Source: an uncultured Candidatus Saccharibacteria bacterium (lineage in GTDB: Bacteria; Patescibacteriota; Minisyncoccia; Phycocordibacterales; CAIZLB01). Taken from it: DNA of 54,273 bases. Below are positions 39,437 to 43,271 of the stretch, in pieces. Made by a program: the position numbers and the translations under genes. The stretch lies in assembly GCA_964417855.1 (NCBI GenBank), contig CAYQJB010000001.1:358709-412981 (forward strand), read 5' to 3'. How positions within the stretch are numbered: position 1 is the stretch's first letter; each line of letters opens with the position of its first letter. A model generated the notes under the pieces. The model ran no database searches. It saw nothing but the letters and a program-made list of their open reading frames with translations, and was not told the DNA's origin.

Positions 39437-40252
39437 ATGGAAACAACAAAAATCTCTTTATTTAAAGGCAAGAAAATAAGAAAAACACTATTTCAAAATG
39501 AGTGGTGGTTTTCTGTTACGGATGTAATTCTGGCTCTTACTGATAGTGCAGATTCCCGTGATTATTGGTATAGAATGAAAATAAGGGTTAAAGAAGAAGG
39601 CGGTTTTCAACTGTCGACAATTTGTCGACAGTTGAAATTACCAGCCGAAGATGGAAGGATGCGAGAAACCGATTGTACTGATACTGAAGGTATTTTTCGT
39701 ATTATTCAATCAATTCCATCAATAAAAGCTGAGCCATTTAAGCGGTGGCTTGCAAAAGTTGGTTATGAGCGAATACAAGAAATAGAAAATCCTGAATTGG
39801 CAACTAAAAGAACGAGAACACTTTACAAACTAAAGGGATACTCAGAGGATTGGATAGAAAAAAGAATGCGAGGGATTGCTATTCGAGGAGAACTGACAGA
39901 CGAATGGAAAAATAGAGGGGCAAATGAGCAAAAGGATTATGAAATCTTGACCGCTGAAATATCTAAAGCTACTTTTGGTGTTACGCCAAATGAATACAAA
40001 AAAGTAAAAGGGCTTAAGCGAGAAAATCTGCGTGATCATATGGATGATTTTGAGTTGATTTTTACAATGCTGGGTGAACGTTCAACCACAGAAATTCATA
40101 AAATTGAAAATTCAAAAGGAGTTTTAAAACTAGCAAAAGATGCCAAACGGGGTGGGGGAATTGCTGGTGTTGCTAAGAAACAATTAGAAAAAGAAATTGG
40201 TAGATCTGTAGTATCAAAAGACAATTTCCTACCAAAGAAAAAAACACCATAA
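39437..40252 (+). CDS. Bro-N domain protein (DinD / phage-antirepressor-like)
   Basis: N-terminal Bro-N signature (F...EWWFSVTDVILAL); start 4 nt after the rnhB stop; contains a 33-bp perfect palindrome at 39605-39637. Confidence 0.55.
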   Translation: METTKISLFKGKKIRKTLFQNEWWFSVTDVILALTDSADSRDYWYRMKIRVKEEGGFQLSTICRQLKLPAEDGRMRETDCTDTEGIFRIIQSIPSIKAEPFKRWLAKVGYERIQEIENPELATKRTRTLYKLKGYSEDWIEKRMRGIAIRGELTDEWKNRGANEQKDYEILTAEISKATFGVTPNEYKKVKGLKRENLRDHMDDFELIFTMLGERSTTEIHKIENSKGVLKLAKDAKRGGGIAGVAKKQLEKEIGRSVVSKDNFLPKKKTP

Positions 40253-40294: not shown

Positions 40295-40609
40295 ATGGTA
40301 AATCACATGAGACACACACCCGGTCACACTGGGAACAGAAGAAGTCACCACGCTCTAACAGCAGTGGTAGCAACGCTGTGCAAGGATTGCGGAGCTCCAA
40401 ACAGAAAGCATACAGCTTGCTCAAATTGCGGTAAGTACAAAGGAAGAGATGTACTAGGAAAGAAAATCAAAGCTGCAAAACTTACAAAAAAGGAGAAAAA
40501 GGCAGCAGCCGCAGTAAAAGCAAAGGCAAAACCTGCAAAAGTAGTTAAGGCAAAAGTAGCAAAAGTAAAGGCCGTAAAGCCAGCAAAAGCAGTCAAAGCA
40601 AAGAAATAA
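40295..40609 (+). CDS. rpmF: 50S ribosomal protein L32 with lysine/alanine-rich C-terminal extension
   Basis: RRSHHALTA and CxxC...CGxYKGR zinc-ribbon of L32, followed by about 45 aa of [11 protein letters not shown] histone-H1-like repeats. Confidence 0.75.
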
Positions 40610-40665: not shown

Positions 40666-41580
40666 ATGGCAAACAGACATTTATTAAGGTCAGTCGTACT
40701 ACAATCACTCTTTGAGTGGGATTTTAGAAACGTCGACAATAATTTAATCGGCGACATAGTGGTCAGAAATGCAGAAGAATTCGCTCCGGGAATGACGGAT
40801 TTTACATTCGCTAAGAAATTAGCTGATGGTGTTGTAAAAAAGAAGGCAGATTTAGATATGATTATTGAAAAAGCTGCTCCAGAGTGGCCTATTGATAAAA
40901 TCGCAAATGTAGACAGAAATGTACTTCGTTTAGGTCTTTATGAGTTGATTTTTGCTGATAGATCAGAAGTTCCAGCAAAGGTTGCAATCAATGAATCTAT
41001 TGAGCTTGCAAAGACTTATGGAGGAGAGACGTCTGGAAAGTTTGTTAACGGGGTACTTGGTGCTGTTTATAAAGAACTTGGAGAGCCTGGAAAGGATGAT
41101 GTTAGAGCTCCAAAAAAGAATAAGGATATTCCGTATGAGGAAATGCCTATCAAAACTCTGGCTGGTGGTGTGGTTTACTCAAGACATGAAGGAGAAATTT
41201 ATCTTGCATTAGTGCATGATGTTTTTGGACACTGGACATTATCAAAGGGCGGAATTGATTCATCAAAGGATATAAAGATTGCAGCAGCAGAAAAGATTGA
41301 GGAAGAGATTGGTGTTCCTGTAACTGTAATGGATGAGCTTGCAAGCAATGAATATATTGCATCTCATCCTGAGGATGGAAAGATAAGAAAGCAGGTCGTG
41401 TATTTTTTGGCTGAAGCTGAATACAAACCACTGAAACTTGAAGAAGGAAAAGGGGGGTTGGACAAAGTTCAATGGTTTAATGTAAAGGAAATTTTATCCC
41501 TGAATTTCTATAACGATATTATGCCAATAATCGTTAAGGCCCTGGGTAAGCTTTCCAATAAAGGGGAAGTTGTGGAATAA
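40666..41580 (+). CDS. nusB: transcription antitermination factor NusB fused to a C-terminal Nudix-fold domain
   Basis: residues 1-140 are NusB-like (RSVVLQSLFEWDF...KFVNGVLGAV); residues 160-300 carry a Nudix-fold pattern (GHWTLSKGG...AAAEKIEEEIGV) with a degenerate Nudix box. Confidence 0.6.
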   Translation: MANRHLLRSVVLQSLFEWDFRNVDNNLIGDIVVRNAEEFAPGMTDFTFAKKLADGVVKKKADLDMIIEKAAPEWPIDKIANVDRNVLRLGLYELIFADRSEVPAKVAINESIELAKTYGGETSGKFVNGVLGAVYKELGEPGKDDVRAPKKNKDIPYEEMPIKTLAGGVVYSRHEGEIYLALVHDVFGHWTLSKGGIDSSKDIKIAAAEKIEEEIGVPVTVMDELASNEYIASHPEDGKIRKQVVYFLAEAEYKPLKLEEGKGGLDKVQWFNVKEILSLNFYNDIMPIIVKALGKLSNKGEVVE

Positions 41581-41591
41581 ACTAATAAATA

Positions 41592-41625
41592 TTTGGGGTC
41601 AGGCACCATGGTGCCTGACCCCAAA
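41592..41625. promoter_or_regulatory. 34-bp GC-rich perfect palindrome in the rnc 5' region
   Basis: TTTGGGGTCAGGCACCA|TGGTGCCTGACCCCAAA; lies between the nusB-Nudix stop (41580) and the rnc ATG (41635). Confidence 0.5.
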
Positions 41626-41634
41626 CAAACAAAA

Positions 41635-42330
41635 ATGACTAATGCAAATATTTCAGAATTTGAAGAATCGATAGGGATTTCTTTTATCGATAAAAATTTA
41701 ATAAAAAAGGCTTTTACACACAGATCTTATTTGAATGAAAATAAAAGCCTAAAATTGGGACACAATGAAAGATTGGAGTTCTTGGGTGATGCTGTGCTTG
41801 AGCTTGTTGTTACAGACTTTTTATATAAAAAATTTCCTCAGAAAAATGAGGGAGAATTAACTGCACTTCGCTCAGCTCTTGTTAAAGCAGAGACCTTGGC
41901 AGCTGCTGCTGAACTTGCTGGAATGAACGCATATTTATTGCTTTCAAAAGGTGAATCAAAGGATACAGGACGAGCTAGACAGTATATTCTAGCAAACACT
42001 TTTGAATCAGTGGTTGGAGCAATTTACCTAGATCAGGGATATGACATCGTTGCAAAATTTATTGCAGATCAACTATTTGCACAAATTGACGATATTATTG
42101 AGAATAAAACTTTTATCGATTCAAAAAGTAGATTCCAAGAAATGGCGCAAGAAAAAACTGGTTTTACACCATCATACAAATTAATTAAAGAAGTTGGTCC
42201 GGATCACAACAAAATTTTCACAGTCGCAGTTACTGTTGGTGAAGAAACTATTACAGAAGGTGAGGGCAAGTCAAAACAAGAAGCCGAACAAATGGCTGCA
42301 GAGAAGGCTCTTGAGATTAAGGCTTGGTAG
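41635..42330 (+). CDS. rnc: ribonuclease III
   Basis: ERLEFLGDAVLELVVTDFLY RNase III signature plus C-terminal dsRBD; first ATG after the palindrome is 41635, and the ORF-track start at 41593 is a TTG inside the palindrome. Confidence 0.85.
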   Translation: MTNANISEFEESIGISFIDKNLIKKAFTHRSYLNENKSLKLGHNERLEFLGDAVLELVVTDFLYKKFPQKNEGELTALRSALVKAETLAAAAELAGMNAYLLLSKGESKDTGRARQYILANTFESVVGAIYLDQGYDIVAKFIADQLFAQIDDIIENKTFIDSKSRFQEMAQEKTGFTPSYKLIKEVGPDHNKIFTVAVTVGEETITEGEGKSKQEAEQMAAEKALEIKAW

Positions 42331-42497: not shown

Positions 42498-43271
42498 TCA
42501 AAGCAGATTACTAGGTTCATCAATTATATCTTTTATTGAGCTGTAAATTTCCCTTGGCCAGCAAATAAATTCCTTAATCTTCTTTATTTCAAAAACCCCA
42601 ATATTTAGTTTAACCAGTTCTCTGGAGGTCCTACCGGCTGTTGAAAATATAAAAATACCCTTATTTTCTTTTGTTATAGCGTTTATCGGGTCAACAAAAT
42701 CACTGTCTCCGCTCCATAGGATGAAGTTATTAATATTATTTTTATATAAATCAAGAAACATGTCTCTAGCTATCTCCACATCAAAATTACATTTTTTATC
42801 TTTCAGGTAAAAAACTCCCTTGTCATTTAAATCTTTAAAGAGATTATTTATTGATTCTATTGCCTTAACGTCGAGAACAGATAATAATGGTTTTTTAACA
42901 AAAGGTTGTAAAAGTAAGGTAGAGTTTTTGGATATATTTAAAAAATTAATAGGGTATAACATTATTTTTACCAATTTTGTTTCAACCTTATACCCGAGAT
43001 TTGTAAATTCAGTTATTGATTCTTGTGATCCCTCATCATTAGTAAGAGTTCCTGTATAAATATATACAATCTTAATTGTGTTGAAAGAATCAAAAAAATG
43101 CTTCAACCTCCTTGGGTTTATATGCCAACCAAGTTTGTCTTGCCAATGTATTACGTTTTGCCAGTCTAGATAGATATTTGAAGTCGTGGCAAAAATCTTT
43201 TCGAGTTCAATAATTACTTCTGGAAAAAGTCTTGCAAGATTTTGTATTCTTTTTGTCTTAGGGATAAACAT
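42498..43271 (-). CDS. NYN-domain putative ribonuclease, paralog B
   Basis: IYLDWQNV, CNFDVEI and ILWSGDSDF motifs; paralog of 6382-7164; TGA stop. Confidence 0.65.
   Translation of the reverse strand: MFIPKTKRIQNLARLFPEVIIELEKIFATTSNIYLDWQNVIHWQDKLGWHINPRRLKHFFDSFNTIKIVYIYTGTLTNDEGSQESITEFTNLGYKVETKLVKIMLYPINFLNISKNSTLLLQPFVKKPLLSVLDVKAIESINNLFKDLNDKGVFYLKDKKCNFDVEIARDMFLDLYKNNINNFILWSGDSDFVDPINAITKENKGIFIFSTAGRTSRELVKLNIGVFEIKKIKEFICWPREIYSSIKDIIDEPSNLL

Follow-up and report, generated by a model that had tools for sequence, protein, structure and literature searches.

A NusB protein of Patescibacteria fused to a Nudix-fold domain whose Nudix box is degenerate in some lineages

Introduction

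NusB is a universal bacterial factor, so far known as a small single-domain protein that is about 130–150 residues long when it stands alone. Helix α7 forms much of its BoxA site; in Aquifex NusB nucleotide U8 of BoxA is recognised through stacking on F122 and a hydrogen bond with E81, and the aromatic residue at the NusE interface of Escherichia coli NusB is Y18 (PMC3177189). Here we describe nusB-nudix, a gene in which a NusB domain is followed by about 165 extra C-terminal residues that make up a linker and a Nudix-fold domain, the Nudix box of which is degenerate. The gene occupies positions 40,666 to 41,580 of a 54,273-nucleotide stretch of DNA, hereafter the window, from an uncultured Candidatus Saccharibacteria bacterium (assembly GCA_964417855.1, contig CAYQJB010000001.1, positions 358,709 to 412,981 of the forward strand). 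A large, uncultivated group of bacteria with reduced genomes has attached this Nudix domain to NusB permanently.

The nearest described relatives of the attached domain act on dinucleoside polyphosphates. In hydrolases of diadenosine tetraphosphate (Ap4A) the P1 phosphate is bound by the His and Lys of an HWxxxK loop, by a Tyr of loop 5 and by the Lys that follows it, and the adenine stacks between the loop-5 Tyr and a second Tyr or Phe (PMC4734340). Related Nudix enzymes hold their metals through the Glu of the "RE" pair, the second Glu of the "EE" pair and one Glu outside the motif, the "RE" glutamate ligating two metals (PMC5526541). Enzymes of the RppH type, among them E. coli RppH, hydrolyse Np4A and also decap RNA or remove pyrophosphate from its 5' end (PMC13010140).

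Results

Domain organisation of the NusB–Nudix protein

The fusion gene and its parts, all on the forward strand, are the following.

40666–41580, + strand: nusB-nudix fusion gene, a single open reading frame (ORF) of 304 codons plus stop, with Pfam NusB and NUDIX domains
40666–41085, + strand: all-helical NusB domain, residues 1–140, placed by Pfam PF01029, TIGR01951, sequence matches in the PDB and Foldseek
41086–41145, + strand: linker, residues 141–160, placed by the predicted local distance difference test (pLDDT) scores of the AlphaFold2 model and by family conservation
41146–41577, + strand: Nudix-fold domain of the dinucleoside-polyphosphate hydrolase type, residues 161–304, placed by Pfam PF00293, profile matches in the PDB and Foldseek
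41248–41316, + strand: degenerate Nudix box, residues 195–217, GGIDSSKDIKIAAAEKIEEEIGV, placed by the family alignment, with K201, E209 and K210 replacing E, R and E

The gene starts with ATG and encodes 304 residues without an internal stop, opening with the N-terminus MANRHL that is common to this protein and its homologues. The N-terminal part is recognised by Pfam PF01029 (residues 8–136, E 9.3e-33, 113.9 bits against a cut-off of 23.1) and by TIGR01951 of NCBIfam (118.2 bits against 88.35), and PF00293 spans residues 169–280 (E 9.4e-10, 39.1 bits against a gathering score of 21.1). The AlphaFold2 model, calculated from an alignment of 86 sequences, has a mean pLDDT of 85.7 and consists of two confident domains with a disordered segment between them, residues 141–153 of the linker scoring below 50. 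Towards its end the linker carries the motif PYEEMPI (residues 156–162), which is kept across the close clade described below; the second clade lacks this segment.

The Nudix half has the α/β/α sandwich fold and superposes best on the Aquifex Ap4A hydrolase 3i7u, with a template modelling (TM) score of 0.87 and a root-mean-square deviation (rmsd) of 2.2 Å, followed by the Ap6A hydrolase Ndx1 of T. thermophilus (1vc8, TM 0.85). Further Foldseek matches include mycobacterial MutT1/Rv2985, Chlamydia CT771, the Ap4A hydrolases of C. elegans and human, and the Nudix domain of NrtR. Sequence and profile searches of the PDB with this half returned a similar set, namely CT771, the Aquifex and C. elegans Ap4A hydrolases, Rv2985 and Ndx1, together with Dcp2. 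Thus, the C-terminal half is a Nudix fold closest to Ap4A and Ap6A hydrolases. Membership of RppH, MutT1 or NrtR was rejected by the curated NCBIfam models: the RppH models PRK00714.1-3 score 22.2 bits against a cut-off of 118, MutT1 stays far under its cut-off, and the NtrR model reaches 14 bits against 400, the window protein having no winged helix-turn-helix domain.

These results bear out what a sequence-only reading of the window had proposed, namely a NusB of about 140 residues joined within one continuous frame to a Nudix fold; the strings that it quoted for the latter (GHWTLSKGG ... AAAEKIEEEIGV) lie at residues 188–217. That reading had also not seen such an architecture described, and no publication describing or discussing it was found in full-text literature searches, in which subscription journals are thinly covered. 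Both domains belong to well-known families, and many entries of sequence databases combine them under the label "NusB" only, a label that hides the second domain of all these proteins.

The NusB half

The N-terminal 149 residues match the NusB proteins of Aquifex (E 5e-22), Thermotoga (E 4.5e-20) and E. coli (E 2e-17) among PDB sequences. The modelled domain displays the seven helices of the NusB fold at a pLDDT of about 90, and it superposes on Aquifex NusB (3r2c and 3r2d) with TM scores of 0.86–0.87 and an rmsd of 1.8–1.9 Å. In the sequence alignment F126 pairs with Aquifex F122, D83 with Aquifex E81 and F16 with E. coli Y18, and all three residues are invariant across the fusion family. The aligned BoxA-contact and NusE-interface positions are thus kept in the NusB half. 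The same half also matches models of RsmB over the RsmB N-terminal domain (E 1e-16); membership of that family was rejected (60.7 bits against a cut-off of 319), and the window protein is a NusB. No second NusB gene and no second Nudix gene occurs within the 54-kb window.

Conservation and distribution of the fusion

The 120 best database homologues of the window protein are about 300 residues long and 63–91% identical to it; all 120 are full length, and both Pfam domains were detected in 118. Where named, they come from metagenome-assembled genomes of Parcubacteria or Paceibacterota and are annotated as NusB only. Together with the query they form the close clade of 121 sequences. When one genome per GTDB species was scanned, 599 stretches matched, a number that is no count of fusions because one of the search patterns, KVAINE[AS]IE, fits ordinary NusB too; the best 80 of them were checked as full length, and in each of the 80 a single ORF spans residues 1 to about 299. 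The titles of these loci include Kaiser-, Nomura-, Adler-, Taylor-, Lloyd- and Zambryskibacteria.

When the Nudix half alone was compared with representatives of 50%-identity clusters, 717 clusters matched at E≤1e-3, and among the matching proteins of at least 270 residues with the Nudix domain at about 150–300 nearly all have a NusB N-terminus. The exceptions without this N-terminus are P0223 (291 residues) and three longer proteins, in which the domain is placed elsewhere. Among the most divergent fused representatives is P0255, 29% identical in the Nudix half, which leads to a second clade of fusions of about 287 residues from Komeili-, Uhr- and other "Patescibacteria group" bacteria, with both domains in all of its 120 best homologues. 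The fusion is real, old and conserved in Parcubacteria-type Patescibacteria. The earlier suggestion to look for the fusion in relatives thus ended with the halves joined in every set inspected, that is the 120 best homologues, the 120 proteins of the second clade and the 80 best loci.

Split genes in relatives were considered and rejected: the two candidate Nudix-only close relatives inspected, P0121 and P0127, derive from a frameshifted contig of 1 kb, the upstream frame of which encodes the NusB part, and from a fragment at a contig end, which is followed by rnc. Positions 1–40 of locus L086 translate like a remnant of a Nextera adapter (…VYKRQ…), and this end of the Logan contig is artefactual, an observation that bears on P0127 as a fragment. 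Outside the window, the 577-residue protein P0204 from a 10-kb ENA contig carries a partial NusB (317–417), a Nudix domain (423–545) and about 315 unassigned N-terminal residues, and may be a further fusion or an artefact of gene calling.

The Nudix box and the metal ligands

In the family alignment the box reads G195, five residues, K201, seven residues, E209, K210, I211, one residue, E213, E214, one residue, G216 and V217. The window protein keeps six of the nine defined positions and has lost E, R and E through the substitutions E201K, R209E and E210K, giving the pattern GKEKEEG in contrast to the canonical GEREEEG. Thus Lys stands at the position of the "RE" glutamate, and both E213 and E214 are kept. 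The sequence-only reading had correctly seen EK in place of RE; the Ser or Asp that it assigned to the first Glu position is in fact Lys201.

The degeneracy that it noted is genuine in the window copy and needs qualification for the family, most members of which are canonical. The complete canonical box is found in 74 of the 121 close-clade sequences, the query counted, and in 102 of the 120 second-clade sequences. Within the close clade RE has become RK or the like in about 20 sequences, and 23 lack both E201 and R209; E210 is present in 120/120 second-clade sequences, and E214 is invariant in all 241 aligned sequences of both clades. Among the fused 50%-identity representatives the box is non-canonical in 36–37 of 45. 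The stand-alone relatives at this level are mostly canonical, and those of about 140–150 residues with Glu at the extra position discussed below are all canonical. A neighbour-joining tree calculated with the box masked gave about 14 parsimony changes for the E201/R209 state and 17–19 overall, counts from a rough tree that should be taken as several independent events. On this alignment and tree, box degeneracy is lineage-specific rather than a trait of the fusion family, and the canonical box has been lost repeatedly. A compensating charge swap of the E–R pair into K201/E209 is not claimed, the K/E combination occurring in two sublineages only and others carrying L/N, K/I, L/K or V/A.

A further difference lies outside the box. 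All 121 close-clade sequences have Gly264, which precedes the conserved Trp270 by six residues; at the aligned place Glu is found in 110 of the 120 second-clade proteins, in CT771 and in the Aquifex enzyme. ApnA hydrolases carry an additional Glu six or seven residues ahead of the conserved Trp or Phe. By analogy with Glu117 of DHNTPase and with E103 of the C. elegans Ap4A hydrolase, the Glu at the aligned place may serve as an extra metal ligand or as a base. Because of E201K, R209E and E210K, one of which removes a direct metal ligand, the window copy is most likely catalytically dead or crippled.

Contact residues and selection

In the close clade most invariant residues of the Nudix half fall outside the catalytic helix and belong to the motifs HDxFGHWTLSKG, NEYxAxHPExGKxRKQVxYF, GGL..WF and LNFYxDIxP. 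Alignment of the family profile with the C. elegans Ap4A hydrolase pairs several of them with residues of that enzyme, as follows.

H189: aligned with H31
K194: aligned with K36
F187: aligned with Y27
K239: aligned with K81
K242: aligned with K83
Y282: aligned with Y121
Y230: adjoins Y76

Of these, H189, K194, F187, K239/K242 and Y282 vary little or not at all within the close clade. The features of the ApnA subgroup, namely the HWTxxKG loop, a Lys on the β-strand after the box and the Tyr/Phe stacking, are seen in the alignment, in which the placement of loops is approximate. The retention of putative binding residues together with the loss of catalytic ones tentatively suggests the pattern of a ligand-binding pseudo-enzyme.

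Selection was assessed by comparing the window gene with four relatives whose DNA sequence was available. Outside the box, nonsynonymous differences (pN) amount to 0.05–0.06 in the NusB domain and 0.085–0.11 in the Nudix domain, with synonymous differences (pS) of 0.6–0.77. The low pN of the Nudix domain holds also inside the degenerate-box subclade (query against P0003 and P0004), where constraint is no weaker than between two relatives with canonical boxes. Within the box, the query differs at 15–16 of the 23 residues from canonical relatives with an overall identity of 81–86%. Judged from these comparisons, strong purifying selection acts on the Nudix domain outside the box, and only the catalytic loop–helix has been remodelled; the domain is not decaying.

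Gene neighbourhood

The gene order rpmF, nusB-nudix, rnc, smc is conserved, with rpmF kept in 77, rnc in 78 and smc in 70 of the 80 loci. The elements that flank the fusion gene in the window are the following.

40295–40609, + strand: rpmF, ribosomal protein L32, with Pfam Ribosomal_L32p; directly upstream of the fusion gene in 77/80 loci
41590–41627, + strand: perfect hairpin in the gap between nusB-nudix and rnc, with a 15-bp perfect stem found by RNA folding, or 17 pairs when G–U is included
41635–42330, + strand: rnc, RNase III, with Pfam Ribonuclease_3 and dsrm; directly downstream in 78/80 loci

The L32 of the window has 104 residues, with the Pfam domain at residues 6–55 and a long Lys/Ala-rich C-terminal tail, and its relatives have 77–87. 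Between rnhB and rpmF lies an ORF of 271 residues (39437–40252, + strand) with a Bro-N domain (E 5e-10), a homologue of which is found at that place in only one of the 80 related loci (L001); the conserved gene block thus seems to have received a mobile or phage-derived insertion here. An ORF of 257 residues with an NYN (PIN-like nuclease) domain (42498–43271, − strand, E 6e-15) is situated on the opposite strand between rnc and smc and is absent at that position in the related loci examined.

The rnc product, 231 residues from the likely true start ATG 41635, is equal in length to those of relatives; the TTG at 41593 given as its start in the ORF listing falls inside the hairpin and is probably wrong. 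From the stop of nusB-nudix to this ATG the gap measures 54 nt, and in close relatives there is no gap, rnc abutting or overlapping the fusion gene. The hairpin (ΔG −29.1 kcal/mol, z −6.8) is unique in the window, and could be an RNase III autoregulatory stem as in the E. coli rnc leader, or the remnant of an insertion. In E. coli, rnc mutations suppress the defects of nus mutants (PMC4807359), and tethering through BoxA positions the leader arm of the leader–trailer helix processed by RNase III (PMC10250234). The conserved adjacency of nusB-nudix and rnc fits this knowledge.

Discussion

A probable binding module tethered to NusB

We read the window protein as a functional NusB that carries, on a linker, a probably non-hydrolysing module for binding nucleotides or RNA 5' ends, derived from an active enzyme, and place the probability of this reading at roughly 0.55. 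The protein would be the working NusB of the organism, binding BoxA on nascent rRNA together with S10, and its linker of about 20 residues would leave the end of helix α7 and hold the Nudix module near the BoxA-bound leader RNA. Ancestrally, and in most present relatives, a canonical box suggests a probably active pyrophosphohydrolase of ApnA, nucleoside triphosphates or RNA 5' ends held by NusB. In the lineage of the window hydrolysis has most likely been lost, and a phosphorylated nucleotide or a transcript 5' end would still be bound; candidate ligands are a nucleoside polyphosphate or a phosphorylated or capped transcript 5' end. A binding role of this kind is proposed because purifying selection persists and the residues aligned with phosphate and base contacts are unchanged. 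The analysis shows the architecture and its conservation, the fold, the state of the box and the pattern of selection, and the loss of hydrolysis, the class of ligand and a part in handling the rRNA leader are inferred. The sequence-only reading had raised binding of nucleotides, RNA caps or alarmones by the Nudix half, which is plausible because the contact residues are conserved.

Several observations weigh against this reading. The predicted template modelling score (pTM) of the model is 0.49, so that the mutual orientation of the NusB and Nudix domains is not predicted. Synonymous sites are saturated and dN/dS values are approximate, and the pairing of loop residues (Y230, K239/K242 and position 264) was made at about 20–25% identity with indels, which makes these equivalences tentative. 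Some Nudix enzymes keep residual activity despite an atypical box, and the window protein still has E213 and E214. The search for a separate stand-alone nusB covered the 54-kb window; the window holds no rRNA operon, and BoxA-like words occur in it at chance frequency.

The most direct rival holds that the Nudix domain of the window copy is still an active hydrolase with a non-canonical site, formed, for example, by E213 and E214 together with D198 or D202, Lys210 taking the place of a metal. Retention of E213 and of the invariant E214, the acidic residues at 198 and 202, the intact putative substrate contacts and purifying selection on the domain are all in line with it. In related enzymes, however, the missing "RE" glutamate directly ligates two catalytic metals (PMC5526541), E201 and R209 have gone along with it, the burst of substitutions within the box is typical of relaxed constraint, and Gly is invariant across the close clade at a position that is Glu in Ap4A hydrolases and in the second clade. 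We consider continued activity unlikely, if worth keeping in mind. Repeated decay of catalytic residues while other surface motifs stayed invariant would also be expected of a pure protein–protein or protein–RNA scaffold in the antitermination complex, having neither a small-molecule nor a 5'-end ligand, for which SuhB offers a precedent in its NusB-dependent recruitment and in a growth phenotype not tied to its inositol monophosphatase (IMPase) activity (PMC4807359). Yet the invariant residues coincide with phosphate and base contact positions of Ap4A hydrolases, E214, a metal-ligand position, does not vary even in lineages with a degenerate box, and most relatives have a complete catalytic box, which leaves a scaffold role improbable.

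Compact genomes such as those of Patescibacteria, with many overlapping or abutting genes, could have joined a house-cleaning Nudix gene to nusB without mechanistic meaning, the domain now decaying in the window lineage, and the flexible linker with no fixed inter-domain contact predicted agrees with such an origin. The fusion has nevertheless been maintained in two divergent clades, and in the window lineage the Nudix domain shows, outside the box, the same degree of conservation as in canonical relatives (pN about 0.09), which is not decay; the chance of a meaningless fusion is accordingly slim. An assembly or frameshift artefact was rejected on the continuity of the ORF and on the same single ORF in 80/80 loci and in 240/240 listed proteins from many samples, and a pseudogene or decaying gene on the pN/pS pattern, with purifying selection on both halves; the probability of either is negligible.

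Returning to the preferred reading of a tethered binding module, a more specific and doubtful extension may be offered. In most lineages of Parcubacteria-type bacteria the module on NusB might act co-transcriptionally on the BoxA-bearing rRNA leader, removing or sensing its 5' triphosphate or Np4 cap, or it might read alarmones of the Ap4A type; antitermination and RNase III processing would thereby be coupled to stress signalling or to the state of the 5' end. In lineages such as that of the window it would act as a non-cleaving clamp for 5' ends or nucleotides. If true, the module would add to the complexes that transcribe bacterial rRNA a component not known before. The permanent attachment of a nucleotide-pyrophosphatase-type domain to NusB, beside the RNase III gene, suggests an extra activity or sensor in rRNA transcription or maturation that model organisms lack or supply in trans (SuhB, RppH). 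The family also offers a natural series from enzyme to pseudo-enzyme on a fixed partner, running through canonical, RE-to-RK and fully degenerate boxes, and the repeated turning of a tethered enzyme into a probable pseudo-enzyme is a noteworthy finding within it.

Comparison with known systems

The likeness to stand-alone NusB (E. coli; Aquifex aeolicus, 3R2C; T. maritima, 1TZT) covers the N-terminal 140 residues and extends to hidden Markov model scores, fold and contact residues. A precedent for a NusB-fold RNA-binding module joined to a domain that acts on rRNA is the 16S rRNA m5C967 methyltransferase RsmB/Sun, in which the partner is an S-adenosylmethionine-dependent methyltransferase, in contrast to the Nudix domain found here. 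With the ApnA hydrolases (3I7U, 1VC8, CT771, the C. elegans and human enzymes and Rv2985) the C-terminal half shares the HWTxxKG loop and conserved Lys and Tyr at the aligned contact positions. These hydrolases and RppH are stand-alone or joined to other domains and possess the complete GX5EX7REUXEEXGU box, whereas the window copy lacks the E, R and E of the box; the ApnA hydrolases have in addition a Glu outside it, where the window copy has Gly at the aligned position.

SuhB of the E. coli rRNA antitermination complex is likewise an enzyme fold that joins the NusB/NusE/BoxA complex, with a role in rRNA maturation that is independent of catalysis (PMC4807359). In contrast to the window Nudix domain, it has the inositol monophosphatase fold, is a separate polypeptide and binds NusA, and the two are related neither in sequence nor in structure. 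Transcription regulators of the NrtR type retain a Nudix domain with impaired catalytic residues for ligand binding, attached to a module that binds nucleic acid. Their Nudix domain (3GZ8) ranks among the best fold matches of the C-terminal half. The degenerate-box Nudix domain of NrtR is a sensor of ADP-ribose paired with a winged-helix DNA-binding domain in a repressor, whereas the partner in the window protein is the RNA-binding NusB. The likeness of NrtR to the NusB–Nudix protein is thus confined to the way of working.

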